Of a stretch of 64,000 nt of DNA, positions 1 through 42,440 are shown in pieces. The position numbers and the translations under genes are program-made. The DNA comes from a virus. Numbering within the stretch: the first letter of the stretch is position 1; the number at the start of each line of letters is the position of its first letter. The stretch lies in the IMG/VR virus record IMGVR_UViG_3300014039_000006. The stretch is one strand, 5' to 3'. The notes below the pieces were generated by a model. It had not been told where the DNA came from and did no database searches. It was given only the letters and a program-made list of their open reading frames with translations.

Positions 1-1
1 T

Positions 2-391
2 CTTGGAAAAACCGCATACGCAAGAGGTCAGAAGCTAACGGGTACAATGCCGAACAATGGAGCGGTTACGGGAGAAATCACGGACAAAGATACGGATTAC
101 ACAGTTCCTCTTGGTTTCCATGACGGATCCGGAAAAGTGGGAATTGCAACAGCAGAAAAAGCAAAGATTATTGCCGGAAACATTAAGCAAGGCGTAACCC
201 TTCTTGGAGTTGAAGGTACATATTCCGGTGAGGGGGTAAATTTACAAGCTAAAACAGTTACTCCGTCAAAAACTGCACAGACGGTACAGGCAGATGCCGG
301 ATATGATGCCTTATCTTCTGTTACTGTAAATGCAATTCCTTACACGGAAACAGCTAATGCCGCCGGAGGAAAGACGGCAACAATCGGTTAA
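2..391 (+). CDS. tail fibre protein, C-terminal part (5' end outside window)
   Basis: Frame is open from the window edge. G/T/V-rich beta-strand motifs (KLTGT, VTGEI, GVTLLGVEGTY) are typical of Firmicute phage fibres. Lies directly upstream of the DGR target. Confidence 0.55.
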   Translation, partial: LGKTAYARGQKLTGTMPNNGAVTGEITDKDTDYTVPLGFHDGSGKVGIATAEKAKIIAGNIKQGVTLLGVEGTYSGEGVNLQAKTVTPSKTAQTVQADAGYDALSSVTVNAIPYTETANAAGGKTATIG

Positions 392-405
392 AGGAGCAAT
401 GGATT

Positions 406-1245
406 ATGGCAATTAATAAAGTGGAATATAGCGGAAATACATTAATTGACTTGACTTCTGACAGCGTGACACCGGAATCTTTGCTTTCCGGTGTCACTGC
501 GCATGATGCGTCAGGAAATTTGATTACAGGAGAACTTAATCCGCAAAAAATATTTGATAATGCCGGATATCACAACAGTATTTTTCGCGGAAAGAACTTG
601 GGAACGTCTGTCACGGAAGAACAATACGAAGCTATTTCTTCCGGAGAGTTCACAGATTTATTTGTTGGCGATTACTGGACTTTGAATAACGTAGTTTACC
701 GTATCGTCGGCTTTGACCTGTTTTTACATACAGGAGATACAGAACTTACAACGCATCACGTTGTTATTGTTCCTGATAAAAATATGTACAGTCACGCGAT
801 GAACGATACAAATGTGACTACAGGTGGTTATTATAACAGCAAAATGAAACAAAGTGGTCTGACACAGGCTCTGACTACGGTAAAGGCGGCATTTGGTGAA
901 AGTCACATAGTAAAAAGAAGAGTAATTTTGACGAATGCCATAAGTGGAGATAATCCATCCGGATGGGCGTGGTACGATACCTACATTGACCTTATGACAG
1001 AACGGCAGGTATATGGATCTCCTGCATGGGGACAGGCGGCACATAATGGATATGATGCCGGATGTGAGTATTCAAGACTCCCATTGTTTACACTTGCACC
1101 GGAATTTATCACAAATAGAGCATGGTATTGGCTGCGAGATATCCGGTCGTCGTCTGCCTTCGCCGATGTCGGCAGCCTTGGCGGTGCCGACGGCGCCGGC
1201 GCGTCCTACTCCGGCGGGGTTCGCCCGCTTTTTTTAATCTCTTAA
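406..1245 (+). CDS. DGR variable target protein 1 (fibre-associated receptor-binding candidate, CLec/DUF1566- or DUF6273-like C-terminus)
   Basis: 279 aa. N-terminus repeats fibre motifs (SGVTAHDASGNLITGEL). C-terminus WYWLRD..SSSAF..GGVRPLF is encoded by VR1. Confidence 0.9.
   Translation: MAINKVEYSGNTLIDLTSDSVTPESLLSGVTAHDASGNLITGELNPQKIFDNAGYHNSIFRGKNLGTSVTEEQYEAISSGEFTDLFVGDYWTLNNVVYRIVGFDLFLHTGDTELTTHHVVIVPDKNMYSHAMNDTNVTTGGYYNSKMKQSGLTQALTTVKAAFGESHIVKRRVILTNAISGDNPSGWAWYDTYIDLMTERQVYGSPAWGQAAHNGYDAGCEYSRLPLFTLAPEFITNRAWYWLRDIRSSSAFADVGSLGGADGAGASYSGGVRPLFLIS
1142..1226 (+). repeat. DGR variable region VR1
   Basis: Manual alignment to TR 1849-1933: 85 nt, 21 differences, all at TR adenines (21 of 25 A changed), no non-A differences. 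Confidence 0.9.
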
Positions 1246-1247
1246 TC

Positions 1248-1279
1248 GTCAATCGCCGCCCCGTGTGGGCGGAGTTGAC
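1248..1279 (+). promoter_or_regulatory. GC hairpin downstream of VR1 (DGR target-recognition hairpin candidate)
   Basis: GTCAA-tcg-CCGCCC-cgtgt-GGGCGG-ag-TTGAC. The same CGTGT loop follows VR2 and VR3. Confidence 0.7.
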
Positions 1280-1295
1280 GGAGAAAGGAACATAT

Positions 1296-1823
1296 ATGTC
1301 AGAAATACCAAAGTCAAGAAGAAAAGAATCAAAATTAGAAGTAATCCACAAAGCATATAGACTACGTTCAAGAATAACAAATGAGCTAATATGCAGTTTC
1401 GGATATTCTCAAAAGAAATATGAAGCACATTTAAACAAGGCGGTAAGACATATTCGGGATGAAACAGAACGTAAGGAGAAGAAAGAAGTTTTACGCAAAA
1501 TGGAAGAAAACTTTGATTTCTGGATTATTGAAAAAGAAAGAGATGATATCCTGCATTACACAAAAGGGATCGTAAATCATCTTATATCTGCAAACACGAT
1601 ATATCCGGTCAACGTACCGGAATATGAAGAGCGAAGACTGGAAATGGACAGGGCATTAGTGTGTTGCACGTGTCTTCAACAGGAATTGCAGTACATTGCA
1701 GAAGTTCTTCCGTCCGACAAGAATAAATACATGAACATAGTGCTTGAAATTCAAACGATTCGAGAAATGATAAAGGGACTTCGACAATCTGACAACAGAT
1801 TTTTAAGAGATATTAAGAAATAA
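1296..1823 (+). CDS. Avd-like DGR accessory protein (four-helix-bundle type)
   Basis: ATG at 1296 after GAAAGGAA. Basic helical protein with an ..ISAN..Y..R..L..A.. pattern, located between VR and TR. The longer track ORF from 1122 is just read-through of VR1. Confidence 0.6.
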   Translation: MSEIPKSRRKESKLEVIHKAYRLRSRITNELICSFGYSQKKYEAHLNKAVRHIRDETERKEKKEVLRKMEENFDFWIIEKERDDILHYTKGIVNHLISANTIYPVNVPEYEERRLEMDRALVCCTCLQQELQYIAEVLPSDKNKYMNIVLEIQTIREMIKGLRQSDNRFLRDIKK

Positions 1824-1848
1824 GAAGTATGTTAGGGTAACCTTTGTA

Positions 1849-1933
1849 TCCAGTCGTCGTCTAACTTCGCCAATGTCAACAACAATGGCAATGCCAACAA
1901 CAACGACGCGTCCAACTCCAACGGAGTTCGCCC
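1849..1933 (+). repeat. DGR template repeat (TR)
   Basis: 85 nt with 25 adenines, many in AAC triplets. Non-coding position just upstream of the RT. Matches VR1, VR2 and VR3. Confidence 0.9.
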
Positions 1934-2068
1934 GATTTCACAACTACCTACTTGACATAGATTCTACTGGTAGCAATGGGAAAGGAAAGGTTATCCATTC
2001 AGTGGAAACTGATAAAAGAAAATTCCGATATACTAAGTTACGACAAGGTATTAGAAACGGGGTTAAAT

Positions 2069-3292
2069 ATGAATCCATTAATAGATGCGAATAGTTTATA
2101 TGACGCCGGAACACTTGCAATAAAAAGCAGCAGCTTCAAGTACAAAACACAATTATTTGAAATGAACCATCTTTTGGAAACTGCATTATTGCAGAGAGAA
2201 TTGCAAGAAGGAACGTATAAGCCGGAAAAAGGAACAAAGTTTCTGATCCATGAAAGAGGAAAAATCAGATACATCACAAGCAACACGATGAGGGATAAAA
2301 CGGTTAACCATGTGTTGTGTGATGAAATCGTCATACCATCCATAGAAAAGTACTTGATTTACGACAACAGCGCTTCGCAGAAAGGCAAGGGAACTTCTTT
2401 TGCCAGAAAGAGACTGGAAGAACACTTGCACAGTTATTATAGAAAATATGGAACTAATGACGGCTATATCTTGTTGATGGATTTTTCTGGTTATTATGCA
2501 AATATTCCACACGATAAATGCAAGGACATTCTGTATAGAATGGTTTTCCGAGACGGACTTGAAGAAGAACCGACCAAAACAGTAATTGAAAATATTTTTA
2601 AATCCTACGAAATGGATGTTTCCTATATGTCTGATGAAGAAATAAAAGTCTTGTATAGCACAAAGGTAGATCCTGTAATGAACCAAAACGTTCCGAAAGA
2701 ATTGCTTACAGAACAAAAGATGCTAAAGAAAGGAGCGGACATAGGAAATCAGCTTGCTCAAGCAATAGGAATTACTTTTCCTTATAAGATTGATAATTAT
2801 GTGAAAATCGTAAGAGGGTGCAAATTTTACGCCAGATATACGGATGACAGCTATATTATTTCGAGCGATAGGGAATTTTTGTTTGATGTTTTGGACGGTA
2901 TTAAAGAAATTGCGGATGAACATGGAATCATATTGAACAAAAAGAAAACGAGGATAGTAAAGATTTCCTCGTTTTTCAGATTTATGCAGATAGGATATTC
3001 CCTAACTGCCACAGGAAAAGTGATAAAGAAAATAAATCCTAAAAATGTGAGAAGGGAAAGGGTGAAGCTGAAAAAATATAAAAAGTTGTTAGATAATGGA
3101 AAAATGACATATGCAGACATAGAAAATTGCTTTAAGTCTTGGATATGTACATACTGGAAAATTATGTCGCACCAACAATTATACAATATGAACGCCCTGT
3201 ATAAGGAGCTGTTTGGAAAGGGAATAAAATGGAAAACGAAAAATTCACGATTACATTGGTTGATGGAACACAGTTCACCGGACTTTCAATGA
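2069..3292 (+). CDS. DGR reverse transcriptase
   Basis: RYTDDSYII (YxDD) motif. IGNQLAQ resembles the DGR-RT (I/L)GxxxSQ motif. The ORF is open from 1976, but ATG 2069 clears the TR. Confidence 0.9.
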   Translation: MNPLIDANSLYDAGTLAIKSSSFKYKTQLFEMNHLLETALLQRELQEGTYKPEKGTKFLIHERGKIRYITSNTMRDKTVNHVLCDEIVIPSIEKYLIYDNSASQKGKGTSFARKRLEEHLHSYYRKYGTNDGYILLMDFSGYYANIPHDKCKDILYRMVFRDGLEEEPTKTVIENIFKSYEMDVSYMSDEEIKVLYSTKVDPVMNQNVPKELLTEQKMLKKGADIGNQLAQAIGITFPYKIDNYVKIVRGCKFYARYTDDSYIISSDREFLFDVLDGIKEIADEHGIILNKKKTRIVKISSFFRFMQIGYSLTATGKVIKKINPKNVRRERVKLKKYKKLLDNGKMTYADIENCFKSWICTYWKIMSHQQLYNMNALYKELFGKGIKWKTKNSRLHWLMEHSSPDFQ

Positions 3293-3528
3293 ATGGTAAC
3301 TGCTTCATTAGTAGTACGGAGATTGAGAAAGACAAACTTGCCGATGACAATCTTTTGACTGTCACAATTAACGAAGAAACGTATGAGAATATGACTTGCG
3401 ACAATCTTTGGGAGGATAATGGAGAATGGTGGTTTATCTTGCGTGAAAAGACCACAGAGGAACTGAAAGAATTAGAACTGAATGCAAAGATTGAGTTCTT
3501 GATGGCGATGCAGGGGGTAATTGAATGA
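3229..3528 (+). CDS. hypothetical protein (position equivalent to XkdW)
   Basis: 99-aa ORF. ATGA overlap with the next gene. Confidence 0.5.
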   Translation: MENEKFTITLVDGTQFTGLSMNGNCFISSTEIEKDKLADDNLLTVTINEETYENMTCDNLWEDNGEWWFILREKTTEELKELELNAKIEFLMAMQGVIE

Positions 3529-3659
3529 GCAAAAATTTTAAAAAAGTACAAATGTACTACAAGATGGGTATTTACAATAAGCAGATAGTTAAAATGCTCG
3601 TATGGAAGCTGATTACTTCCGACGAGTACGAATTAATCACCGGAGAAAAGTATGAATAA
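3525..3659 (+). CDS. XkdX-family small protein
   Basis: 44 aa: MSKNFKKVQMYYKMGIYNKQIVKMLVWKLITSDEYELITGEKYE. Matches the XkdX pattern (YY.MG.Y....V...V....IT..EY..ITGE.Y). Confidence 0.65.
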   Translation: MSKNFKKVQMYYKMGIYNKQIVKMLVWKLITSDEYELITGEKYE

Positions 3660-3891
3660 TCCAGAAGAAAAATTTACAAGATCTGATGTGGAAATAGCGA
3701 TAGAAGAAGCCATTGACAGTTATACATTGCGCCTTATGGTTGCGGATAGTAAAAAACCCGATCTGCTTATTCAATCGTACAAAAGATTGCATGAAGATGG
3801 AAAGATATTAAAGAAAGATCTTCTTGATCGTGTAATGTGGGAAATCATTACACAGGAAGAATACAATTACATAACCGGACAGGAGGTATAA
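3652..3891 (+). CDS. hypothetical protein with XkdX-like C-terminus
   Basis: 79 aa ending ITQEEYNYITGQEV. Confidence 0.5.
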   Translation: MNNPEEKFTRSDVEIAIEEAIDSYTLRLMVADSKKPDLLIQSYKRLHEDGKILKKDLLDRVMWEIITQEEYNYITGQEV

Positions 3892-3895
3892 GTAT

Positions 3896-4261
3896 ATGGA
3901 AGAATGCATTAAATTAATTGCTGTATTGGCAATCCTAGCGTTGGCAAACATTGTCGGCGGTGTGGTAAACAATGTTAAGTTAAAGAAGTTTTCTTTCAGC
4001 TGGAAAAAACTGCTGAATGGAGTGATTCAGTTTTTAGGAATTGGATTTATGTTTGTAGCGTTGGCATATTGCATAGAAACCATTCCAGAAATTGGAAATG
4101 CTCTGGGCGTACAACCCAAAACAATGATATTAGCTGCTATTACCATATATGCAAAGAAGATTTTCGAGCAGCTTAATGATTTTATCAATTTAAAGAAGGA
4201 AATAAAGGCAAATTCGGAAGAAGAAAAAGAAGAAGTAGACACAGAATATATGGATATGTGA
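3896..4261 (+). CDS. holin
   Basis: 121 aa with 2-3 hydrophobic helices and a charged C-terminal tail. Immediately upstream of the endolysin. Confidence 0.7.
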   Translation: MEECIKLIAVLAILALANIVGGVVNNVKLKKFSFSWKKLLNGVIQFLGIGFMFVALAYCIETIPEIGNALGVQPKTMILAAITIYAKKIFEQLNDFINLKKEIKANSEEEKEEVDTEYMDM

Positions 4262-4271
4262 GGTGGCAGAT

Positions 4272-5477
4272 ATGGAAGTAAAAGAGTTTATTGATAAAAT
4301 TGCAGAAAAAACCATTGCATCTTGCAAGGATGTAAACCTGTTGCCGTCACCGTCCATTGCACAGGCAATTATAGAAAGTGCGCATGGGACCAGTCAGCTT
4401 GCGGTAGAAGCTAATGCGTTGTTTGGAATTAAGGCAGACAGTAGATGGAGTGGAAAAACGTATCAGAAATCCACAAAAGAATTTCAAAACGGACAGTATG
4501 TTGATGTTGTGGCAAAATTTCGAATGTATGATACATGGGAAGAGTCTATTGAAGATCACGCACAGTTTCTTATAAAAAACAAAAGGTATTCAAACCTTGT
4601 AGGAGTAACGGATTACAAGGAATACTGCAAGTTGATAAAGGAAGACGGATATGCTACTTCGCCTACATACATCCAAACACTTATTGATTGCATTGAAAAA
4701 TACAACCTCACGCAGTATGATACCGATGAGGACCAGGAGGAAAAGCCGAAACAACCGAAAAAGATTCGGTCATTCAATGTTCATGCTGGGCATAACCCTA
4801 GCGGCAAAGTTGCTTGCGGTTCGGTGGGTTATCTGAACGAGTCCGATGAAAACCGGAATGTCTGCAATGGATTGATTGAAAAAATCAAGAACGCCGGACA
4901 CGTAGTTTATAACTGCACCTGTGATGACGGTACAAGCCAAAAAGATGTATTGCAAAAGATTGTAGCAAAGTGCAATCAACATACGGTTGATCTTGATATT
5001 TCCGTTCACTTCAATGCCTTGTCAAAGGAATACATTTCAGACAGTAAGACAAAGGGCGTTGAGGTGTGGATTCATCCGAATAACAAGGGAAAAGAAGTTG
5101 AAAAAACTGCACAGGCAATTTGTGACAGCGTAGCCAAATTGGGATTTACAAACCGTGGCGTCAAGTATTCTGACGGTCTTTATGTTCTTAAGAACACAAA
5201 ATCTCCGGCGATGCTGATTGAGTGTTGCTTTGTAGACGATGTAGACGATTTCCAGCTTTATGAATGTTCCAAAATGGTACAGGCTATTTATGACGGTCTT
5301 TCCATTGAAACAGTGGAAGATAAGGAAGAAAAGAAGTTGTACTATGTCATTGCCGGTGTATATTCTTCGGAAGAAAATGCAAAGGCATTTGCGGAATCAC
5401 TTGCAAGCAAGGGTTACCTGATGAATGCAGACGGCAACCTCATCCGTGGAATTACAACGCAGATTAAAGAAATGTAA
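4272..5477 (+). CDS. endolysin: GH73 glucosaminidase + Amidase_3-like + SPOR-like C-terminus
   Basis: AQAIIESAHGTSQLAVEANALFGIKA (GH73 motif). HAGHN...SVHFNA (amidase). C-terminal YYVIAGVYSSEENAKAF (SPOR-like). Confidence 0.85.
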   Translation: MEVKEFIDKIAEKTIASCKDVNLLPSPSIAQAIIESAHGTSQLAVEANALFGIKADSRWSGKTYQKSTKEFQNGQYVDVVAKFRMYDTWEESIEDHAQFLIKNKRYSNLVGVTDYKEYCKLIKEDGYATSPTYIQTLIDCIEKYNLTQYDTDEDQEEKPKQPKKIRSFNVHAGHNPSGKVACGSVGYLNESDENRNVCNGLIEKIKNAGHVVYNCTCDDGTSQKDVLQKIVAKCNQHTVDLDISVHFNALSKEYISDSKTKGVEVWIHPNNKGKEVEKTAQAICDSVAKLGFTNRGVKYSDGLYVLKNTKSPAMLIECCFVDDVDDFQLYECSKMVQAIYDGLSIETVEDKEEKKLYYVIAGVYSSEENAKAFAESLASKGYLMNADGNLIRGITTQIKEM

Positions 5478-5483
5478 GAAAAT

Positions 5484-5514
5484 GGGGATGTCATTACGGC
5501 ATCCCCTTATTTTT
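5484..5514. terminator. bidirectional rho-independent terminator
   Basis: GGGGATG-N8-(G)CATCCCC followed by a T-run, between convergent genes. Confidence 0.7.
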
Positions 5515-6307
5515 ATCTCACGCCTAAAGTCCCGTCAGAATTTAGAAATCCGACAATATATCCGATTTTATCATCAATGTCCCTATCTTTAAATACAAGG
5601 TTGCTATTGATAACGGAAATGTATTCCCATATTTTCTTCCCATTGACAATTCTATGAGTTTTCTGCACCAGATAAATATATCCGTCAAGGGTAACAATGC
5701 ATAATTCATTGTCAAGTGCGTCACGGTCAGCAGAAATCAAGATAATTTCACCTTGCATAAAATGTGGCATATAATAGTTACACGGCATTTTCAAACCGCA
5801 GTAAACCTTATTTCTGATGGATTCGGGTAAGTCATTGATGCATAGGGTTTCCGTGACATTGGTTGTCATTAAGTGGCTGTCGAGATATTTGGGAGTAAAG
5901 ACGGAAATGTATTTCTTCTTCCATTCAAGTTTCGAGTATATTTTCTGCTGATGCCGGATAAAATATCTCACCATGTACAAGGAATGTTCCGGAAGTGTTT
6001 TGCATATGGCAATAGATTCTTGCGTAACCGGGTTGATGCAATTTGCGCCAATCAAATCGTCAACACTGATTTTAAGAGCCTTTGCAATGGAAACGACCGT
6101 TGATAGCTGAATATCCTTTTTCCCCTTATCATAAAGGATATTATTTAGCGTTGCGGTAGATATTCCGGTAATTTCTGCAAACTCGCTTTGCGTCATATCC
6201 GGTTGCCCGGTATACAACATGATGTTGTTTCTCAAATTCTCAATACAATTTTCTGAATCATTTGAGAGTTTTGTCGATAAATAACGTATTCTTTCTTCTG
6301 TTAACAT
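5513..6307 (-). CDS. XRE-family HTH regulator with degenerate S24-like C-terminal domain (CI-like)
   Basis: HTH: MTQSEFAEITGISTATLNNILYDKG. The C-terminal beta-rich domain has no obvious Ser/Lys dyad. Confidence 0.75.
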   Translation of the reverse strand: MLTEERIRYLSTKLSNDSENCIENLRNNIMLYTGQPDMTQSEFAEITGISTATLNNILYDKGKKDIQLSTVVSIAKALKISVDDLIGANCINPVTQESIAICKTLPEHSLYMVRYFIRHQQKIYSKLEWKKKYISVFTPKYLDSHLMTTNVTETLCINDLPESIRNKVYCGLKMPCNYYMPHFMQGEIILISADRDALDNELCIVTLDGYIYLVQKTHRIVNGKKIWEYISVINSNLVFKDRDIDDKIGYIVGFLNSDGTLGVR

Positions 6308-6657
6308 AGTTTTCCCCTTTCACAAACGTGTTAAGATGTAAGTGTCTTCCATGAAAGGAAGATACAAGTTCCGGTTTGAGGGCGGTGTTTATTGGCGTTT
6401 TCACCGTCCTCATTTAAAAATATTATAAATCGGCGTAAAAAATCTCACAAGAAAAGATCATGTAAAATATTGCATTATGTGATAAATTGTTTGATAATTT
6501 AATTGTGTAAAAAGGGAATTGGGAGGTGCAAAATGGAAGAAGAGGATTATAAAAACAAAATCATTAAAATGATTAATGAAATGGAAAACGAAGATTTTCT
6601 TTTCAAAATTTATCATTATATAATTCCAAAATATAAGAAAGAAAAAGAAGCAGGAAA

Positions 6658-9209: not shown

Positions 9210-9613
9210 GAAAGAAATTGATTGTGTTTCTTCCTATTATAATGGCGTTTCTTTTATCCATTCCAGTCAAAGCCAATAACGAACCGTTTGTGATGCACAC
9301 CACGGCATATTGCCAGGGAACGATAACTGCAAGCGGAACAAAGGTCAGACGTGGCATATGTGCCGTGAAGAAAGAATGGTTGGGAAAACTTGCCATTGTC
9401 TACGAATACAAGGACGGAGAGATCGGGGATGTTATCGGATATTATGAGTGCCTTGATACAGGATTTGGTGGCGATGCTGATGGTGACGGTATTGGAAGCA
9501 TAGAAGCCGGAAGGTGCATTGATATTTATTTTCCAACTTTGGAAGAATGTAAGGATTGGATGAAGCAGACAGGTGGAAAAGTATATGTCCAGCTTGTGGA
9601 TGCGGAAGGTTAG
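9206..9613 (+). CDS. secreted 3D-domain (MltA/RlpA-like double-psi barrel) protein
   Basis: Signal peptide MRKKLIVFLPIIMAFLLSIPVKA. TAY..GTITASGTKV..G.CAV ... D.G..I...RCIDIYF pattern. Confidence 0.65.
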   Translation: MRKKLIVFLPIIMAFLLSIPVKANNEPFVMHTTAYCQGTITASGTKVRRGICAVKKEWLGKLAIVYEYKDGEIGDVIGYYECLDTGFGGDADGDGIGSIEAGRCIDIYFPTLEECKDWMKQTGGKVYVQLVDAEG

Positions 9614-9955
9614 GGAGAAGGTGAAGAAATGTACATACCACCGTTTTGGTGCGGAGTGATTGCCACGATCTTATTTGAACTGGCAGTAACAATTATTATG
9701 GCATTTGCCGTAAGGACGAAACCGGAGAAAGGAGAGGAAGACGATGATCGTAACTAATTTTAATGAGATGAGCATTGAAGAACTGGAAGCTATTTGTGAC
9801 ACGCTCCACATGGAATTATCCATTAACGACGGAAAGATCGTAGGGGCAGAGGAATAGCACCTACAACGACCGGAAATCAGAATAGGTGCTATAAAGTGAA
9901 TCAGCTATTGCTTTTTCATGCCCTATTATACCGGAGAAAGGAGAAAAAGTCAAAC

Positions 9956-10324
9956 GTGACAAAAGATAGGATAGAAAAAATTCTTATGAATATGGGGATA
10001 TATCCATATCATGTTGGGTTTAAGTATCTTGTAGAAGCGATCCCGTTAGCTTTTGAAACCTTAGGAAAAACATCATTTGCAATGTATATCTATTGCGAGG
10101 TTGGAGAGAAATGCGGAGTTGATTACAGGTGCGTAGAACGTGGAATAAGAGAGTCGCTAAAGAACATCAAAAGAGATAGCAGCGATTTCAAAAAGTACAT
10201 CGGGATTAACAAGAATGAAAAGGTTACCACGAAGAAATTTCTTTCCATGTTTGCATACAATTCTTTAAAAGAAAGGGGTGAAAGAATTGAACGAGATACA
10301 AATAACAGGAACGGTATTGGATAA
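9956..10324 (+). CDS. Spo0A C-terminal (DNA-binding) domain-only protein
   Basis: GIYPYHVGFKYLVEAI...YCEVGEKCGVDYRCVERGIRESLKNI parallels Spo0A GVPAHIKGY.YLREAI...IAKK..TT.SRVERAIRHAIE. No receiver domain. GTG start after AGGAGA. Confidence 0.65.
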   Translation: MTKDRIEKILMNMGIYPYHVGFKYLVEAIPLAFETLGKTSFAMYIYCEVGEKCGVDYRCVERGIRESLKNIKRDSSDFKKYIGINKNEKVTTKKFLSMFAYNSLKERGERIERDTNNRNGIG

Positions 10325-10901
10325 TCCGAAATATTCACATTCGATCGGAGATTGCGTGATTTATTCATTTCCACTTGCGACCAGAAGATTAAGCAGAAAT
10401 GTAGATTATGTAATGGTGCATATTTACGAAGAAATTAAAGACCAGTTTTACTTCGGTAAAAAGATTTCTATTTCTGGTGAAATGAGGACTTACAGGAGAA
10501 GAGGGGATGACGATAAACTTCATCTTTATCTGTATATAATGCCATATGCAATAGATACAAATTCGGAGTTACTTGGAGAGGACGAAGACACCGGAGTTAT
10601 CGAAGGGGAAATTCAATGGATTATTCCCTTGAGGAAGACTCCCAGAGGTCGAACAATCGTTGATTTTTGCTTGAAAAGTGAAAGGTTTAACGGAAAATAC
10701 GACACCATTCCTTGTATTGCATGGGAAGAAAATGCGAATGATATTTCCTTATTGAAACCTGGAGATAAATTGAAAGTGAGAGGACGGTTGCAGAGCCGTG
10801 AATATGTAAAGAAATTTGAAAGCGGAGAAGCGGAAGTAAGAACCGCCTATGAGTTTTCTGTTTTTGAAGTGGAAGGGAGAAAAAATGGACTTAAACAGTA
10901 A
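10278..10901 (+). CDS. tandem OB-fold, SSB/PriB-like protein
   Basis: Two segments with an SSB-like pattern (ITGTV..NP.., KLKVRGRLQSREY....G...RTAYEF.V.EVE). Confidence 0.45.
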   Translation: MKELNEIQITGTVLDNPKYSHSIGDCVIYSFPLATRRLSRNVDYVMVHIYEEIKDQFYFGKKISISGEMRTYRRRGDDDKLHLYLYIMPYAIDTNSELLGEDEDTGVIEGEIQWIIPLRKTPRGRTIVDFCLKSERFNGKYDTIPCIAWEENANDISLLKPGDKLKVRGRLQSREYVKKFESGEAEVRTAYEFSVFEVEGRKNGLKQ

Positions 10902-16623: not shown

Positions 16624-16980
16624 ATGAAGATTATTGAGGGAAAAGAAAAAGAATACAAGGAATGGTACGACAAAAATAGCGATGCTTATAGCAGAGCATG
16701 TTTTACATTCGCAGAAAGATGGGCGGAACTTTTGGAAGAAAAAATAGACAACTCTTCCGATTGCCCGATGAAGGTAATTGTCGATAACGCAGAACAATTA
16801 AGTGACGAAGCAGACACAGAAGGAATCACGGGATTTATGTATGGTTGCGCTGTTAATATTCTCTCGAGAGAATGGGAATACGGCGATGAATTGAGAAGAT
16901 GGCATAACGGAAAATACGATTATCAGGGCGAAGGAACTGTAAATCCGGCTATTCTTACGGTTGGTGGCAAAGATGATTAA
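16624..16980 (+). CDS. hypothetical protein
   Basis: 118-aa ORF. Confidence 0.5.
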   Translation: MKIIEGKEKEYKEWYDKNSDAYSRACFTFAERWAELLEEKIDNSSDCPMKVIVDNAEQLSDEADTEGITGFMYGCAVNILSREWEYGDELRRWHNGKYDYQGEGTVNPAILTVGGKDD

Positions 16981-17677
16981 TCTGAAATGCCTATCTTCCG
17001 GAAGTAAAGGGAACTGCTATCTTCTGGAAGCTGATAACGGAGAAGTGCTTATCATTGATGCCGGAATACCAATCATGGATATTAAGCGTGGTCTGAACTG
17101 GAATGTAAGAAGTGTAGTCGGTGCGGTTGTTACGCACCGGCACACAGACCACAGTAAAAGCATTGATGATTTACGTCACATGGGAATAAGGGTTGTTGCA
17201 CCGTATGAATCCGGAAATGTAAAGTCCATGAGTTTTTCGATGGGAAGTTTCAAGATGCAGGCTTTTGATGTTCCACATAACGGTTGTTGGAATAACGGAT
17301 TTTTGATTAAGACTCCGGACGGACAGAAAATCTTGTATATGACCGATTTGGAGTATTGCCCGTATTCTTTCCGGAAGCAGAGCGTAGACCATATGCTTAT
17401 CGAGTGCAATTACATGAAATCACTGGTTGATACGGACGCTCCGAATTATGTTCACAAGATTCGAGGTCACTGTGAACTGGAAACGACAAAAGGAATCGTC
17501 AAAGAGAACGCAACAAATAGCCTTGTAAACGTTATATTGTGTCATTTGGGGCGTGATACTTGCGAAGAGGACAAAGTTATCGAAGAAGTAAAAAAGATCG
17601 TTCCTAAAGCCAATGTGGACGTTGCAAAAGTCGGTAAGGAATGGATTTTAAGAAAGGGCGGTGAGTGTCCGTTTTGA
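16973..17677 (+). CDS. MBL-fold metallo-hydrolase (candidate recombination nuclease)
   Basis: HRHTDH motif. Sits between RecT and SSB. Confidence 0.75.
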   Translation: MINLKCLSSGSKGNCYLLEADNGEVLIIDAGIPIMDIKRGLNWNVRSVVGAVVTHRHTDHSKSIDDLRHMGIRVVAPYESGNVKSMSFSMGSFKMQAFDVPHNGCWNNGFLIKTPDGQKILYMTDLEYCPYSFRKQSVDHMLIECNYMKSLVDTDAPNYVHKIRGHCELETTKGIVKENATNSLVNVILCHLGRDTCEEDKVIEEVKKIVPKANVDVAKVGKEWILRKGGECPF

Positions 17678-17846: not shown

Positions 17847-18278
17847 ATGAATAAAGTAATTATATGTGGAAGACTTGTCCGTGATCCGGAAGTGAGATAT
17901 TCACAGGGAGAAAAGTCAACGGCTATCGCAAGGTACACGGTAGCGGTAGACCGGAAATTTAAAAAAGACGGAGAACAGAGCACAGATTTTATTAGCTGCA
18001 TTGCTTTTGGAAAGCCGGCTGAATTTGCGGAAAAGTATCTCCGCAAGGGAATTAAGATGCTGATTGTCGGTCGCATTCAGACCGGAAGTTACACAAACAA
18101 GGACGGTCAGAAAGTCTACACGACAGACGTTGTTGTTGAGGAACAGGAGTTTTCAGAAAGCAAAAATTCTTCTCAATCTGCAAATCAGAACACGCAAGCA
18201 CCTCCCGTTGGCGAATCTACTGGCGATGAATTTATGAGCATTCCGGACGGAATCGACGAAGAACTACCATTTAACTAA
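17847..18278 (+). CDS. ssb: single-stranded DNA-binding protein
   Basis: MNKVIICGRLVRDPEVRY...IVGRIQTGSYTNKDGQKVYTTDVVV with an acidic tail DEELPF. Confidence 0.9.
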   Translation: MNKVIICGRLVRDPEVRYSQGEKSTAIARYTVAVDRKFKKDGEQSTDFISCIAFGKPAEFAEKYLRKGIKMLIVGRIQTGSYTNKDGQKVYTTDVVVEEQEFSESKNSSQSANQNTQAPPVGESTGDEFMSIPDGIDEELPFN

Positions 18279-18884: not shown

Positions 18885-19451
18885 ATGAAGGTAAAAAGAA
18901 CAGTAACAATGAAAGTTAGCAATTTTGAGGTTGGCGATCGGATCACCGTAAAACTTTCTGGATATGGGAAGTTTACGGCTACGGCACACGAGATCACAGA
19001 CAAGGGAACACTATTTATCTTTGATGATTGTGTTTGTGAAAGACAAATGAACGAAGAAAATACGAATGAAGGTGGATATTTGGAATCAGACCTTAGAAAG
19101 TTTGTGGCACAGGATCTGTTAAAGGCATTTCCGGATAAACTTTTGGAGAGAATGGCAAAGGACGATAACGGAGATCTACTTTCCATTCCGACCTACGGAC
19201 AGGTTTTGGGTAAAGACTGGGACGATGAGTGGGATGAGAAAAACATTGAGATCGACAAGAGAGAACAATTGCCACTGATGCAGAAAAGAAAGAACCGGAT
19301 TGCAGATTTACAAAACGAATGGACATGGTACTGGTTGCAAAATAAAGTCCTGTCGTCGTCTGCCTTCGCCGGTGTCGGCGGCGATGGCTATGCCGGCTAC
19401 GCCGGCGCGTCCGACTCCGGCGGGGTTCGCCCAGCTTTCCTAATCAAGTAA
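18885..19451 (+). CDS. DGR variable target protein 2 (remote)
   Basis: Paralog of 25030-25599. C-terminus WYWLQNKVLSSSAFAGV..GGVRPAFLIK is encoded by VR2. No signal peptide. Confidence 0.85.
   Translation: MKVKRTVTMKVSNFEVGDRITVKLSGYGKFTATAHEITDKGTLFIFDDCVCERQMNEENTNEGGYLESDLRKFVAQDLLKAFPDKLLERMAKDDNGDLLSIPTYGQVLGKDWDDEWDEKNIEIDKREQLPLMQKRKNRIADLQNEWTWYWLQNKVLSSSAFAGVGGDGYAGYAGASDSGGVRPAFLIK
19348..19432 (+). repeat. DGR variable region VR2
   Basis: 85 nt aligned to TR: 21 differences, all at TR adenines. Confidence 0.85.
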
Positions 19452-19459
19452 TCATTAAT

Positions 19460-19480
19460 CCACGCCCCGTGTGGGCGTGG
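19460..19480 (+). promoter_or_regulatory. GC hairpin downstream of VR2
   Basis: CCACGCCC-cgtgt-GGGCGTGG, 28 nt after VR2. Confidence 0.7.
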
Positions 19481-19511
19481 AAATGGAAGTAAATTAAAGG
19501 AGTGACAAGAA

Positions 19512-25029: not shown

Positions 25030-25599
25030 ATGAAAGCATGGAGAAAAGTAAAAATGGAGATCAAAAACTATGAGGTCGGAGATCAGATCGCGGTGAAACT
25101 CAAAGGCTTCGGAAAATTTACTGCAACGGCACAGAGAGTTTATGACGATGGAAAAACGCTGTTTCTTTTCGATAACTGCGTTGCAGAACGGCAGATGAAC
25201 GAAAACGGTTCAAATTCCGGAGGTTTTTATGAATCCGACTTATGCAAGTGGATGAATACAGAATTGGTGAAAACTTTTCCCACTAAACTTCTTGACCGCA
25301 TGATTTATACGAACGAAGAACATGAATGCCTGCTTCGAATTCCGACAAGAAAGGAAATGTTCGGAGAAGATGAATATAGTCAATATTACGAACCGGATAA
25401 CGAGGAACAATTTGAACTTATGAAAGACAGAAAAAACCGTGTTTGTTCTCTTCCTGATGATGAATATGCATGGTATTGGTTGATGAATGCGCATCTCCGG
25501 TCGTCGTCTTACTTCGCCCCTGTCAGCGCCAGTGGCCGTGCCAACGGCTTCGGCGCGTCCAGCTCTGGCGGGGTTCGCCCGGCTTTCCTAATCAAGTAA
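25030..25599 (+). CDS. DGR variable target protein 3 (remote)
   Basis: Paralog of 18885-19451. C-terminus WYWLMNAHLRSSSYFAPV..GGVRPAFLIK is encoded by VR3. Confidence 0.85.
   Translation: MKAWRKVKMEIKNYEVGDQIAVKLKGFGKFTATAQRVYDDGKTLFLFDNCVAERQMNENGSNSGGFYESDLCKWMNTELVKTFPTKLLDRMIYTNEEHECLLRIPTRKEMFGEDEYSQYYEPDNEEQFELMKDRKNRVCSLPDDEYAWYWLMNAHLRSSSYFAPVSASGRANGFGASSSGGVRPAFLIK
25496..25580 (+). repeat. DGR variable region VR3
   Basis: 85 nt aligned to TR: 19 differences at TR adenines plus one C-to-T at TR position 71. Confidence 0.85.
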
Positions 25600-25607
25600 T
25601 CATTAAT

Positions 25608-25628
25608 CCACGCCCCGTGTGGGCGTGG
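25608..25628 (+). promoter_or_regulatory. GC hairpin downstream of VR3
   Basis: CCACGCCC-cgtgt-GGGCGTGG. The roughly 58 bp after the VR are identical to the VR2 flank. Confidence 0.7.
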
Positions 25629-25665
25629 AAATGGAAGTGAAATTAAAATTTCGGAGGTAAAGTAG

Positions 25666-28179: not shown

Positions 28180-29544
28180 ATGAATTGTGTCGCATATATG
28201 CGTGTTTCAACGGAGAAACAAGCAGAAGAAGGAAATGGATTGGATAGTCAAAAACGGGATATCGAAATATATTGTCGCAAAAATGAGTTGATTATATCCG
28301 ATTGGTATATTGATGACGGATATACAGGAGCGAATACCGATAGACCGGCTTTGCAAAGGCTGATTACGGATTGTTCAAAACACAGGATAAAATGCATAGT
28401 TGCTTTTAAACTGGACAGGCTTTCACGTAGCATGGTTGATGGAATATACTTGATAGAGAGAGTTTTCATGCCAAATCAAGTAGAATTTAAGTGCGTGCAT
28501 GACAGTGTAAGCTATGATAGTCCTATGGAACAAGCATACACACAAATGATGGCTGTATTTGCACAACTTGATAAAAACACGATGCTGTTGAGAATGCGCG
28601 GAGGAATGCTTGAAAGAGTAAAAAAAGGATATTGGATGGGCGGTGGAAATACACCTTATTGTTACCGATATGATACTGAATCCGGTACACTGATTCCGAT
28701 ACCTGAAAGAGCAGAACAGGCAAGGCAAGCGTTAGAAATGTTCATAAACGGATATTCTGATGAACAAATAATGAAAATGTTTGGATATAAAAGCGAATTT
28801 GTTGTCAGAAGAATACTTACCGGAGTTGTAAACATTGGGATGATACCGTACAAAGGAGAGGTTTTTCAAGGACTTCACGAACCTATCTTTGATAAAAGCC
28901 GGTTTGAACTTGCACAGGAAATAAGAAAGTCCAGAAGAATAACAAGGACAAAATGCTTTGACCGAGAAACAAATTTGCTTACTGGATTATGTTATTGTGG
29001 CGTGTGCGGTTGCAAAATGAGATACCAGAAATGGACTCATGGAAAGCACAGGATTTATTGCTGTTCCAGAAACAAGGATTTAAACTATCTTCCGAACTGG
29101 TCTGAAAATTGCGATAATTCTCTTGTGTGGGCGATTGATATTGAGAAGCAAGTTGAAAAAGAGATACTGAAAATATCCGTTAATCTTTCAAAAAGCAAGC
29201 CAAAAGAGAAGAAAAGTAAACTTGAAATCATGGAATCACAGCTTGATAAAGAGAAAGTAAAGTTAAAAAGGCTTTATTCTTTATACGCAGACGGAAACGA
29301 CACCGTTCTTGACATGATTAAAGACCTAGAACTGAAAATTGATGGGATGAAGATGAAAATAACAGAAGAAGCCAAAAGTCCGTTGAATACACAGAAGAAA
29401 GAGTTTGTTTATGAAAATATAAAAAACCTTGCCGATATGTGGGGTCACATTGACAAGGCTAAGAAAAACTCTATATTAAAAAGCATAATATCTAAAATTG
29501 TAATTGTCAATGATGATATTGAAATACAATTAAAAAACTTTTAG
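28180..29544 (+). CDS. large serine recombinase (integrase)
   Basis: AYMRVSTEKQ catalytic-Ser motif, a recombinase domain, a Cys-rich zinc ribbon (CYCGVCGC...YCCS) and a coiled-coil C-terminus. Confidence 0.9.
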   Translation: MNCVAYMRVSTEKQAEEGNGLDSQKRDIEIYCRKNELIISDWYIDDGYTGANTDRPALQRLITDCSKHRIKCIVAFKLDRLSRSMVDGIYLIERVFMPNQVEFKCVHDSVSYDSPMEQAYTQMMAVFAQLDKNTMLLRMRGGMLERVKKGYWMGGGNTPYCYRYDTESGTLIPIPERAEQARQALEMFINGYSDEQIMKMFGYKSEFVVRRILTGVVNIGMIPYKGEVFQGLHEPIFDKSRFELAQEIRKSRRITRTKCFDRETNLLTGLCYCGVCGCKMRYQKWTHGKHRIYCCSRNKDLNYLPNWSENCDNSLVWAIDIEKQVEKEILKISVNLSKSKPKEKKSKLEIMESQLDKEKVKLKRLYSLYADGNDTVLDMIKDLELKIDGMKMKITEEAKSPLNTQKKEFVYENIKNLADMWGHIDKAKKNSILKSIISKIVIVNDDIEIQLKNF

Positions 29545-33001: not shown

Positions 33002-34351
33002 ATGAAGATTTGTCCTAAATGCAGTTCATTTGCAAATGATGATTCAAATTTCTGTCCAAGATGTGGATCTAACCTTGATACCAATATTCCGGTTTCTAAT
33101 CATTCACAATTAAGAACGGAGAAAAACAAGAATAAAGTGTCTGCATCTGCAATAGTAGCTACTGTTATAGGAACTATTGCTTTGTGCCTGTACTTTAGTT
33201 ATTTTTCATTATTTGTTGGAACGGTAGGTATAATTGTTGGAATTATTGCGATTGCGCTATCAAGATCGGATAGGAGCAGATTTATTTCAATAATCGGAAT
33301 TTCATTTTCAGTATTGGCTTTTATTACATTCTTTGCCTTTCAAAGAGAACAGGCTAATAATGAAAAACCAAATGAACAAAAAGAAGAAATTGCCGTTGAA
33401 ACACCTAGTCCGACCGTTGAACCGACAGAAGCACCTATAAACTATAAAGAAGTTTTTCTCTATGATTTGATTTTGAATAGTACATCGTATGTAAATCAAT
33501 ATGTGGAAACTTCATTTTCCATACATTATTGTTATCCAAAAGAAAATGATGGATTAACGGAAATTGCGAGTGAATATACGGATTATGACTTAACCGGAGA
33601 AATGGATAATATTTTTATTTATCTTGACGGGTTAGTGGAGTATGAAATGGATCAGTATATTACTGTCCGAGGAAGGTTTGTATACAAAGATTCTAGATAC
33701 TGTATTATTGATGCCGAGGTTACCGACATTGGTTCGCAATCCGAGAAGAGTTTTCAAGACGGTCTCATCATTTACACGCATTACCGGAACGAGGAATTAC
33801 AGGCAAGCAAGGAAAGTTTTATTGCAAGTTGTGTGGAAGTGTCCTATGATGATCTTTTGCGTTATCCGGAAACCTATCAAGATGTGCCGATTAAACTCAC
33901 CATAGTTGCATCTGATGTAAAAGCAGACGGTTGGATTTTCAAGGGAGATATTCTTGCGGAGTATCAAGGCGGCGACTTGATTGTGTTTGACGATCGAGAA
34001 GTCCGTGAGCCGAGACTTGTTAACGGAGATAAGGTGACCGTTTATGCGACAGGTGACGGACTTGGAAAGATGAAGATAAAAGAGGATCGTTTCATATACG
34101 AAAAGACCGTAGATGATTACAACGTACCGCAGATAAGCATTAAGTACACGGAGTGGGATAAAGCGTTTACGGAAATGGATAGCAGTTCAAAGGCAAGCGA
34201 CGACGGCGACCTCTATGATGAAGGTAAGCGTGCCGGAGATGACCTTGCAGAAACACTAGGAGAAATTGATTGGGACGAAAACAAGGAAGATGCGAGAGAA
34301 GCCGGAGAAGAACTTGCGGAATACATAAACGAAATAATAGGTGCAGAATAA
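33002..34351 (+). CDS. zinc-ribbon membrane protein with extracytoplasmic domain
   Basis: CPKCSSF..CPRCGS, about three TM helices, a globular domain and an acidic tail. Confidence 0.65.
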   Translation: MKICPKCSSFANDDSNFCPRCGSNLDTNIPVSNHSQLRTEKNKNKVSASAIVATVIGTIALCLYFSYFSLFVGTVGIIVGIIAIALSRSDRSRFISIIGISFSVLAFITFFAFQREQANNEKPNEQKEEIAVETPSPTVEPTEAPINYKEVFLYDLILNSTSYVNQYVETSFSIHYCYPKENDGLTEIASEYTDYDLTGEMDNIFIYLDGLVEYEMDQYITVRGRFVYKDSRYCIIDAEVTDIGSQSEKSFQDGLIIYTHYRNEELQASKESFIASCVEVSYDDLLRYPETYQDVPIKLTIVASDVKADGWIFKGDILAEYQGGDLIVFDDREVREPRLVNGDKVTVYATGDGLGKMKIKEDRFIYEKTVDDYNVPQISIKYTEWDKAFTEMDSSSKASDDGDLYDEGKRAGDDLAETLGEIDWDENKEDAREAGEELAEYINEIIGAE

Positions 34352-34357
34352 GGGAAT

Positions 34358-34392
34358 TGGGGCGGTTTAATCCGCTCCTTTTCTTTTTTTTA
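34358..34392 (+). terminator. rho-independent terminator
   Basis: GGGGCGG-tttaat-CCGCTCC followed by a T-run. Confidence 0.7.
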
Positions 34393-34401
34393 AATTTGTG
34401 C

Positions 34402-34443
34402 TTGACTTTTTGTAGCGACAGTATTATATTTACTGTAGCGACA
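34402..34443 (+). promoter_or_regulatory. promoter with duplicated operator
   Basis: TTGACT-17 nt-TATATT. TGTAGCGACA occurs at 34411 and 34434. Confidence 0.6.
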
Positions 34444-34464
34444 AAAAAGAAATGAGGTGAGAAG

Positions 34465-34644
34465 GTGTCGCCAGAAAGAGGAAGACCAAAATTAGACAAT
34501 AAAAAAGACACTATGCTTAGAGTTCGTATTGATGATGATGTAGTTAAGAAATTGGAAATCGCTTCAAATAACTTGAACATAACGAAGTCTGATGTTGTTA
34601 GAAATGGTATAGAAAGTGAATACCAAAGGTCATTAAAAAAATAA
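34465..34644 (+). CDS. ribbon-helix-helix (CopG/Arc-like) small regulator
   Basis: GTG start after GAGGTGAG. ..DTMLRVRIDDDVVKKLEIASNNLNITKSDVVRNGI.. Not in the ORF track. Confidence 0.45.
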   Translation: MSPERGRPKLDNKKDTMLRVRIDDDVVKKLEIASNNLNITKSDVVRNGIESEYQRSLKK

Positions 34645-34767
34645 AGTGTTGCTCCGCTACCAACGACAACAACACTTTAAGAACCGAGATTTCTCTCATG
34701 TGAAATATTCTATCACACGGGAAAATCTCTTTCAAGTAAATTTTAATTTTTGAAAGGTGGTAGAATA

Positions 34768-35007
34768 ATGAATAAGTTTCTTGAAATTATTTACATGAAC
34801 CAGATTATGGACAAGGACTGGGGCAAATGCGAAGAGAACTTCGCAAAGTTCACGAACAGGCTGAAAGAAATCGTAAGCGAAGAGATTTTCGAGGAGTTAG
34901 ACGAACTTCTCACGGACTGCATCACCGAAAACAACGCCATGTATGCCGTAGACGGTATGAAGCTTGCAATCGGCGTTCTTGACGGAACGTTCATTCCGAA
35001 AGCGTAG
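34768..35007 (+). CDS. hypothetical protein
   Basis: 79-aa ORF with an AAGGTGG RBS. Confidence 0.5.
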   Translation: MNKFLEIIYMNQIMDKDWGKCEENFAKFTNRLKEIVSEEIFEELDELLTDCITENNAMYAVDGMKLAIGVLDGTFIPKA

Positions 35008-35019
35008 GAGGTGACCACT

Positions 35020-35157
35020 ATGAAAAATTCTTACACAATGGTTACCATTCCACAAGAAAGATACGATCGCATGGTGGAATCCTACGACAAGGCACTGAAA
35101 GAACTGGAAGAACTTCGGAAGGAGTTGGAACAGTTCAAGAAGGGCGGTGCTTGCTGA
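35020..35157 (+). CDS. hypothetical small coiled-coil protein
   Basis: 45 aa with an AGGAGG RBS. Not in the ORF track. Confidence 0.4.
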   Translation: MKNSYTMVTIPQERYDRMVESYDKALKELEELRKELEQFKKGGAC

Positions 35158-35846: not shown

Positions 35847-35853
35847 AGAAACG

Positions 35854-36135
35854 ATGACGGAACCTAAAATATTGAACCATTGCCCGTTATGCGGTGCAAA
35901 CATGAAATACATGGCAATCAGACAATATGGGGAAGTGCATGAAATCACTTCAAGAGGTCACATCAAAGCTAATTCAAGAAGAGAAAGCATAGATTCAGTT
36001 AACACAAACTATCTGATCTGTTGTAGTGACGAATGTAATTTTATAGCGGAAAATCTTCTGTCTGAAGATCACCCAGAAATCAAGATTTTTAAAGAAAGAG
36101 GTACATTTTATTATACCGTGGAGGACAAGGAATGA
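35854..36135 (+). CDS. hypothetical zinc-ribbon protein
   Basis: CPLCGAN...CCSDECNF. Confidence 0.5.
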   Translation: MTEPKILNHCPLCGANMKYMAIRQYGEVHEITSRGHIKANSRRESIDSVNTNYLICCSDECNFIAENLLSEDHPEIKIFKERGTFYYTVEDKE

Positions 36136-42367: not shown

Positions 42368-42440
42368 AGGGATATCGCCAAGCGGTAACGGCACAGGATT
42401 TTGATTCCTGTATTCGTGGGTTCGAATCCCACTATCCCCG
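42368..42440 (+). tRNA. tRNA-Gln (anticodon UUG)
   Basis: Manual cloverleaf. D arm GCC(A)/GGC, anticodon stem CAGGA/UCCUG with loop UUUUGAU, T arm GUGGG-UUCGAAU-CCCAC. The acceptor has an A1-C72 mismatch. No encoded CCA. Confidence 0.75.

Follow-up and report, generated by a model that had tools for sequence, protein, structure and literature searches.

The DNA between positions 406 and 3292 of the IMG/VR virus record IMGVR_UViG_3300014039_000006 raises the question of whether a pair of repeats and a neighbouring reverse transcriptase (RT) gene form a working diversity-generating retroelement (DGR), and which proteins such an element would diversify. The whole 64,000-nt stretch, called here the window, was analysed. 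A first-pass annotation, made from the sequence alone, had described in this region a complete DGR cassette in the order target gene, Avd-like gene, template repeat (TR) and RT. This order was borne out, with a structured spacer between TR and RT (Table 1). All of the named elements are present, but the cassette is not the whole system, which also has variable repeats (VRs) at ~19.35 and ~25.5 kb. The target gene of the cassette and its repeat are called T1 and VR1, and the remote ones T2 with VR2 and T3 with VR3. We conclude, with a probability of about 95%, that the window carries a phage-encoded DGR working by mutagenic retrohoming.

The specificity of the differences between TR and VR1 was determined by programmatic alignment. 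TR (1849-1933) and VR1 (1142-1226) were aligned over 85 nt without gaps, and all 21 mismatches were found at positions occupied by A in TR. The first-pass annotation had counted by eye 21 of 25 adenines substituted and no other base changed, and these counts were reproduced exactly; substitutions spread over non-A positions, which it had named as contrary evidence, did not appear. The base counts of this part of TR are 25 A, 30 C, 15 G and 15 T. An independent repeat-finding run delimited a 92-nt repeat (1140-1231 and 1847-1938) with 76% identity, in which 22 of the 22 mismatches lie on the 27 adenines of TR. If mismatches were placed randomly over the 92 positions, the hypergeometric probability of all 22 landing on A would be 8.7e-17. 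In the T1 reading frame (406-1245), the TR adenines fall 13 times on the first codon position, 13 times on the second and once on the third. The AAC triplets pointed out earlier were also found, as the AAY codons comprise eight AAC and three AAT. TR can encode ~1.4e14 protein variants (1.1e15 DNA variants), and no substitution of A inside its mutagenised stretch can create a stop codon. The boundaries of mutagenesis (1145-1218) were set by comparing alleles; the 3′ boundary in VR1 is formed by a GC-rich end, GTTCGCCCG at 1219-1227, which resembles the initiation of mutagenic homing (IMH) site of known DGRs. TR position A1935 is a fixed C in every VR1 allele and a G in VR2 and VR3. As it is fixed across alleles, this position belongs to the difference between the acceptor and donor ends (IMH and IMH*) and not to mutagenesis.

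The RT was recognized by Pfam RVT_1 (E 1.5e-12) and PHROG 1423 (E 1.8e-51), and it contains the motifs reported in the first-pass annotation, namely IGNQLAQ (residue 225) and YTDD (residue 257). The most likely start is 2069; the first ATG, at 1976, is disfavoured because the 407-aa form aligns with its relatives from its first residue and the segment 1976-2068 belongs to the conserved spacer RNA. The highest NCBIfam match by E-value was the group II RT/maturase TIGR04416 (1e-12), and NCBIfam returned no DGR-RT family for this protein. These two results would suit the explanation that the locus is not a DGR, with the RT derived from a group II intron, a retron or a defence system and the repeat arising by chance or as a duplicated fragment. 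The group II match, however, scored 47.9 bits against a cut-off of 300, and the retron St85 and Drt3a models scored 26 bits (cut-off 235) and 28.9 bits (cut-off 200), respectively. The best match in the PDB was a DGR enzyme, the Bordetella phage bRT (8ub7; E 4e-9), followed by a group II maturase (2e-4), and an Rfam scan of positions 1-6400 at E <= 1 gave no match, group II intron RNA included. On the basis of the NCBIfam scores below cut-off, the bRT match and the lack of intron RNA in the Rfam scan, group II intron, retron and defence-RT identities were rejected. In addition, the adenine-only mismatches (P ~9e-17) recur in 14 relatives, and we regard the chance that this is not a DGR as negligible.

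Motif 4 of this RT ends in AQ instead of the usual SQ, which counts against a DGR assignment. Across the RT clade motif 4 reads IGxxx[S/A]Q and motif 5 Y[T/M]DD; since relatives with proven TR/VR pairs carry either form, AQ is no sign of another RT class. Fourteen IMG/VR contigs encode RTs that are 37-57% identical to that of the window. In a diagonal scan scoring non-A positions only, 13 of the 14 had a TR immediately before the RT and, ~700 nt before that, a VR, with 11-23 mismatches at A sites and at most three others; the remaining contig is truncated at the expected place of the VR. Among annotated RTs, the closest belong to Acutalibacter phage Fontainebleau (56%), Roseburia phage Shimadzu and the Faecalibacterium phages Brigit, Taranis and Roos. 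The Roseburia and Faecalibacterium phages are known DGR phages, the latter having been described in PMC11792537. A genome-collection search added two short contigs from metagenome-assembled genomes, which are probably mis-binned (RT identity 49%). The best matches and the TR/VR layout of the relatives support the placement of this RT with DGR RTs. A grouping with group II or retron RTs, which would have spoken against the first-pass annotation, is disfavoured by the 8ub7 match, the NCBIfam cut-offs and the repeats of the relatives.

To determine the natural variation of the element, independent assemblies of essentially the same phage were collected by exact-protein look-ups in ENA and Logan data, and 5.5 kb was aligned from seven genomes. 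A megablast search of positions 1-6400 against 50,697 phage records gave no match, and A-degenerate TR patterns matched nothing in viral, genome and metagenome collections. TR has a single allele in all six assemblies that include it, and avd and RT showed zero substitutions among the compared assemblies. VR1, on the other hand, has six alleles in the seven genomes. The 92 nt of VR1 contain 26 polymorphic columns, 25 of which are TR adenines, i.e., every A within 1145-1218. Outside VR1, the ~4.6 kb from 838 to 5500 has no polymorphic column except one contig-end artefact. The samples ERZ808272 and ERZ808283 differ in VR1 and share their VR2 and VR3 alleles. The polymorphism at TR adenines that the first-pass annotation had suggested looking for was thus found among independent assemblies.

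These data also bear on the explanation that the DGR is a fossil, once active and now inert, with TR/VR differences that are historical. VR2 is identical across nine independent contigs, and several cultured Faecalibacterium phage DGRs have no read-level variation (PMC11792537), as an inert element would lead one to expect. Against this stand the six VR1 alleles among seven near-identical genomes, with all 25 TR adenines varying and none of the flanking 4.6 kb, the intact and invariant RT, avd and TR, and a second VR3 allele whose differences are at A sites only. The fossil explanation is largely refuted for VR1 and very improbable for the element. Some points weigh against the reading as an active DGR: one VR1 allele carries one non-A change, VR2 shows the single allele mentioned above, and we infer activity from differences between assemblies. 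Between-genome VR variation has been taken as evidence of activity in Faecalibacterium phages (PMC11792537). Judged from the alleles, retrohoming appears to be active on VR1 and occasional on VR3, and it was not seen on VR2.

Table 1. Features of the DGR and of its remote targets in the window.
Feature	Position	Strand	Remarks
T1, target gene 1 (279 aa)	406..1245	+	last gene of the tail module; VR1 forms the C-terminus
VR1, variable repeat	1140..1231	+	92-nt repeat with TR; mutagenised part 1145-1218
GC hairpin after VR1	1247..1280	+	core stem 1256-1261 / 1267-1272, loop CGTGT; -14.6 kcal/mol, z -4.0
Avd-like accessory gene (175 aa)	1296..1823	+	PHROG 3206 match and position between VR and TR
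TR, template repeat	1847..1938	+	27 A; 11 in-frame AAY codons
Structured spacer of the DGR RNA	1939..2068	+	130 nt, non-coding, between TR and RT start
DGR RT (407 aa)	2069..3292	+	Pfam RVT_1; PHROG 1423; best PDB match bRT 8ub7
T2, target gene 2	18885..19451	+	188 aa from ATG 18885, or 193 aa from TTG 18870; stand-alone DUF6273
VR2	~19351..19424	+	end of T2; 17.5 kb from TR
GC hairpin after VR2	19453..19485	+	CCACGCCC-CGTGT-GGGCGTGG; -13.1 kcal/mol, z -4.1
T3, target gene 3	25030..25599	+	189 aa from ATG 25030, or 194 aa from 25015; DUF6273
VR3	~25499..25572	+	end of T3; 23.6 kb from TR
GC hairpin after VR3	25601..25633	+	identical to the VR2 hairpin; -13.1 kcal/mol, z -3.3

The stability of hairpins next to the repeats was assessed by DNA folding, with z computed against shuffled sequences. 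Each VR is followed, at a distance of 20-30 nt, by a GC hairpin with the common CGTGT loop, and none of 200 shuffles was as stable as the VR1 hairpin. One stem pair is compensatory between the VR1 hairpin and the VR2/VR3 hairpins (C-G to A-T). GC hairpins with a 5-7-nt loop and unrelated stem sequences were also found after the VRs of all relatives folded. No hairpin follows TR, where the DNA fold gave -2.5 kcal/mol (z 0.15). The GC-rich IMH-like end and the hairpin are thus present at the VRs and absent at TR, and their predicted role is that of acceptor signals. The hairpin downstream of VR1 is a candidate cruciform element for target recognition, by analogy with the Bordetella element, for which Guo and colleagues reportedly described in 2011 the requirement of a hairpin/cruciform downstream of VR.

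The spacer between TR and RT contains a helix (CTACC 1944-1948 / GGTAG 1969-1973), a conserved GGAAAGGAAAGGTTATCC block from 1979, a short hairpin, and a nested hairpin at 2021-2064 with a TTACGA cap at 2038-2043. The blocks GGAAAGGAAAGGTTATCC, TGATAAATGCTAATC and GTTACGAC are conserved across nine elements. RNAalifold predicted nine pairs for the TTACGA-capped hairpin, with compensatory double changes in eight of them. Folding of the individual sequences gave the same architecture, with further shared helices that MAFFT had misaligned. No Rfam family matched this spacer RNA, the conserved blocks and strongly covarying hairpin of which were noted in the window (1939-2068) and in the elements L001-L013 and L034. 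In line with the Bordetella system, the spacer may prime cDNA synthesis. A covariance model of this spacer could help to annotate DGR RNAs.

The product of the gene between VR1 and TR is basic (pI 9.1) and predicted to be all-helical. It matched PHROG 3206, 'Avd protein of DGR', with E 2.8e-5, as did four of eight clade orthologs (best E 2.7e-7). The position of avd between VR and TR is kept in all relatives, and in the window TR begins 24 nt past the avd stop codon. Position, composition and the PHROG 3206 match are the reasons for the name Avd-like. Several results weigh against a firmer assignment: neither phmmer nor a profile of eight orthologs detected a PDB match, Pfam gave no match for this protein or for any ortholog, and a single-sequence AlphaFold2 (AF2) model (pLDDT 57) had no PDB match in Foldseek. 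The PHROG match is itself weak, and the name leans on it and on position, so the protein is designated here as Avd-like. In two of the related elements, L009 (9261-9896) and L012 (9274-9957), the avd open reading frame (ORF) lacks a stop before TR and continues across it in the frame of VR, and the C-terminus of Avd would there equal the translated TR.

The following course of events is proposed on the paradigm of Bordetella phage BPP-1. The region avd-TR-spacer-RT would be transcribed, and the RT, in a putative complex with the basic helical Avd-like protein, would copy the TR part of the RNA into cDNA, presumably primed by the spacer. Misincorporation would occur opposite template adenines during cDNA synthesis, and a target gene would have the homologous VR at its 3′ end replaced by this cDNA. 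Two features would mark the acceptor, namely the IMH-like end GTTCGCCCG and the GC hairpin ~20-30 nt downstream. As TR lacks both the IMH-like end and the hairpin, information would flow one way, from TR to VR.

T1 consists of an N-terminal extension of ~85 aa and a DUF6273-type domain that ends in VR1. A search for homologs returned 6,831 proteins, many of them pre-annotated as PF19789 (DUF6273), and the C-terminal ~220 aa of T1 are ~30% identical to T2 and T3. The AF2 model of T1 (pTM 0.74) matched models of viral 'Receptor Binding Protein' and DUF6273 proteins with E-values from 2e-27 to 1e-4. The gene closes the tail module. The first-pass annotation had placed it after tail-fibre genes; these are established by position, as seven distal-tail genes lie between the tape-measure gene and T1, and not by annotation, as their PHROG functions are unknown and none is annotated as a tail fibre. 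Given its genome position and the strong model matches to viral receptor-binding and DUF6273 models, T1 is most likely a tail-tip binding protein, predicted to sit on the virion as the receptor-binding tip. As T1 closes the tail module and most likely forms this tip, the element probably diversifies host or ligand recognition. The tropism switching proposed earlier is plausible in view of the position of T1 and its predicted fold matches.

A C-type-lectin or immunoglobulin (Ig) fold displaying VR is expected of DGR targets. A Pfam scan gave no match for T1 itself. Foldseek against the PDB did not recover a C-type-lectin fold, which is a point against the DGR reading. The best fold match in the PDB was weak (E 0.34), to the DUF6273-containing IgA peptidase of T. 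ramosa, the N-terminal domain of which is DUF6273 (PMC12402451). Moreover, we infer the virion location and receptor binding of T1 from its position and model matches. A separate observation was made in one of the compared genomes, L017 (SRR29834479). It has ~66 mostly third-codon differences from the window over positions 1-837, which comprise the tail gene before T1 and the first two thirds of T1 itself, and it is identical to the window from 838 to 5500 except for VR1. This pattern points to a putative recombination breakpoint inside T1.

The remote repeats were found with an A-degenerate version of TR, which was run over the entire window, and both matches were on the + strand. T2 and T3 matched Pfam DUF6273 (PF19789) with E 4.4e-9 (36.9 bits) and 2.6e-12 (47.4 bits), respectively, at a gathering threshold of 23.5 bits, and PHROG 21980 with E 1.4e-57 and 5.8e-44. 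They are paralogs with 56% identity, and they lack the N-terminal ~85-aa extension of T1 and a signal peptide. Over ~80 nt, the non-A positions of TR are matched essentially throughout by both VR2 and VR3. In the mutagenic stretch, VR2 differs from TR at 21 and VR3 at 18 of the 25 adenines. The same TR appears, from this agreement, to serve also these two non-adjacent small DUF6273 genes.

It was considered whether VR2 and VR3 are instead paralog remnants that share ancestry with VR1, look like VRs and are not current targets. Their distance from TR (17.5 and 23.6 kb), the static VR2 and homology ends that differ slightly from those of VR1 would fit such remnants. VR3 also has a single non-A exception, a C-to-T change at 25566, which is a point against the main reading. 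Ordinary divergence, however, would not spare the non-A positions, and these are kept over ~80 nt in proteins that are elsewhere only ~30% identical to T1, while 21 and 18 of 25 TR adenines are changed. Both repeats have kept the acceptor hairpin, and an equivalent remote VR exists in Fontainebleau. VR3 has two alleles in nine contigs, and the second differs at A sites only and has the C-to-T change reverted, as expected after a fresh retrohoming event. We consider the remnant explanation improbable. In the preferred reading, in which both sites are DGR targets, VR3 underwent at least one rewriting in the population sampled, and VR2 was mutagenised in the past and is static in the sample.

A comparison of the acceptor signals of VR2 and VR3 revealed a sole difference, a synonymous G-to-A change right after GTTCGCCC (19433). 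This change may be the cause of the VR2 stasis, as a candidate natural IMH-inactivating mutation; selection and sampling are alternatives. The three acceptors of the one TR differ visibly in turnover, and one G-to-A at the IMH boundary separates the static VR2 from the rewritable VR3. With their identical hairpins, VR2 and VR3 constitute a natural experiment on acceptor competence.

The 3′ ends of T2 and T3 and their hairpins are near-identical for ~100 nt (19346-19490 and 25494-25638). Sibling contigs of 57-60 kb terminate exactly at these ends, and the length of 66,074 bp less the 6,148-bp spacing of VR2 and VR3 is ~59.9 kb. In a short contig, L030, T3 is joined to the gene normally found after T2 (region of L030 and L032). 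This junction reflects either a genuine variant with a 6.1-kb deletion or chimeric assembly.

The neighbourhood of T2 and T3 comprises a single-stranded DNA-binding protein (SSB) gene, helix-turn-helix (HTH) regulators, a DnaD-like loader, a helicase loader, a methyltransferase and DUF551 genes. T2 has the SSB gene, an HTH regulator and a Tad4 gene as neighbours, and T3 follows the DnaD-like loader, helicase-loader and HTH genes. The Tad4 gene (a type I Thoeris inhibitor; PF25186, E 7.3e-34) overlaps the start of a gene for a metallo-beta-lactamase-fold hydrolase (16624-17677). A faint match of this hydrolase to Anti-Pycsar Apyc1 is listed in a sibling record. The two genes are a candidate anti-defence pair, 1.2 kb upstream of T2.

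A profile of the three small targets gave 188 IMG/VR relatives; 80 loci were fetched with 6 kb on either side. Within this distance, no cognate TR was found in any of the 80 loci, and an RT homolog was found in two. About half of the fetched loci have a stable hairpin just past the stop codon. The 90 nt equivalent to the VR are A-poor, with a median of 0.14 vs 0.28 for the rest of the ORF. PHROG scans of the flanking ORFs in five loci showed SbcC-like/recombinase genes (L036), DNA polymerase and helicase-primase (L070), primase and RtcB (L114) and, in two cases, genes of an unknown family, with virion genes in none of the five. The neighbourhoods were not classified by synteny, which at the sequence level was too weak between the 80 loci and the window for this purpose.

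T2 and T3 might be diversified binders that act inside the cell, expressed from the early/replication region and serving, for example, counter-defence or host takeover, and not virion receptor-binding proteins. They have neither the N-terminal ~85-aa extension nor a signal peptide, they are surrounded by genes for replication, recombination and regulation, with Tad4 at 1.2 kb, and their homologs have the same placement in Fontainebleau (DNA polymerase I / helicase), L036, L070 and L114, with no TR within 6 kb in any of the 80 homolog loci. Gene position is, however, weak evidence for the time or location of expression, T1, which is tail-associated, has the same domain, and publications favour receptor binding for small DUF6273 targets (PMC10743442; bioRxiv 10.1101/2024.10.15.618418). 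On balance, an intracellular role of T2 and T3 is rather unlikely. The evidence reaches as far as the gene placement and the missing anchor and signal peptide. A broader proposal goes beyond it, in which the small anchor-less DUF6273 targets (T2, T3 and their many homologs) are a distinct class of DGR targets, located systematically in replication/recombination modules far from the cassette and acting as intracellular diversified binders. We put this forward as a speculation that is rather doubtful at present. If it were true, one TR would drive two arms that turn over differently, one for tropism (T1) and one inside the cell (T2/T3), and binders of the T2/T3 type would act, e.g., on variable host defence or replication factors.

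The element was compared with known DGRs. It shares with the prototype, the BPP-1 DGR (mtd-avd-TR-brt), the order target-avd-TR-RT, a VR at the 3′ end of a tail-associated target, adenine-specific mutagenesis, AAY codons, a GC-rich IMH-type end, a hairpin/cruciform after VR and a spacer RNA between TR and RT. It differs in its RT (407 aa vs 328 aa), which matches bRT over two segments only, and in its 175-aa Avd-like protein without detectable sequence similarity to the solved Avd. The target is a DUF6273 protein and not Mtd, which was not matched in the fold search, and there are three targets instead of one.

DUF6273 has been described as a C-lec-like DGR target in gut phages (PMC10743442). 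One TR serves a pair of 'large and small' DUF6273 targets in Lelie and CP11, which are Faecalibacterium phages (PMC11792537). Toutatisvirus has a core gene of unknown function with a second VR, at a distance of 17,480 nt from TR (bioRxiv 10.1101/2024.10.15.618418). The element shares DUF6273 targets with a C-terminal VR with Lelie/CP11, Toutatisvirus and the nd4/nd12 gut-phage DGRs. In contrast to these, its RT (~26-29% identity to theirs) serves three VRs in one large and two small paralogous targets, with no tentaclin or Ig-domain target, and the small targets lie among replication genes and are unequally variable in the population. Wu et al. (2018; PMC5758913) found many phage DGRs with one adjacent target and another elsewhere in the same prophage, at less than 50 kb, and one DGR with three diversified targets. 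The element of the window is no different in kind from those with non-adjacent targets.

The closest annotated genome is that of Fontainebleau (ON453893.1). It has an RT with 56% identity and the same layout, i.e., a 311-aa target, avd, TR (35097-35200) and RT. A 189-aa homolog of T2 (gene 9330-9899; 47% identical) contains a further, remote VR (9797-9895), which is followed by a GC hairpin. The neighbours of this homolog are DNA polymerase I and a helicase, and the distance to the TR of Fontainebleau is 25 kb. The genome differs from that of the window in length (39 kb vs ~66 kb), in having one small target instead of two, and in the lack of nucleotide-level similarity. The second VR of this two-target DGR, in cis, was located at 34382-34478 (cassette 33554-36376). 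The Fontainebleau DGR is not annotated in the GenBank record and not mentioned in the paper naming the phage.

All main features of the element have already been published, and it is a further example of a known DGR type. As a textbook DGR, its main value is that of a clean, well-evidenced example. In the literature compared, we found no statement of a systematic placement of small targets in replication modules, of differing turnover of three acceptors under one TR, or of the conserved spacer structure of this clade. Cassette-centred surveys miss remote targets by design, as Roux et al. (2021; PMC8144416) stated of their own method. The small stand-alone DUF6273 targets, at least 6 kb from any TR in all 80 viral loci examined, are of the type missed by such surveys.

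The window represents ~97% of a phage genome of ~66 kb, as sibling contigs have 66,074 and 66,558 bp. The phage is of a gut type and temperate. Its gene order starts with an SPP1-type portal, head genes and a 1,439-aa tape-measure protein. The DGR is followed by an XkdX-like gene, a holin-like gene and an endolysin with glucosaminidase, amidase and SPOR domains, then by a CI-like repressor on the opposite strand (5513-6307) and by the early genes. A large serine recombinase with Resolvase, Recombinase and Zn_ribbon_recom domains (28180-29544) is encoded in the middle of the early region, away from the repressor, and no tyrosine integrase was seen in the window. A gene for tRNA-Gln (anticodon TTG; 42368-42440) lies between the early region and the packaging genes. 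There are two SSB-family genes (17847-18278 and ~10278-10901), for both of which Pfam SSB is recorded in sibling contigs. The nearest cultured relative, Fontainebleau, infects Acutalibacter muris, and a Spo0A_C-like gene near the SSB genes is consistent with a Firmicutes host.

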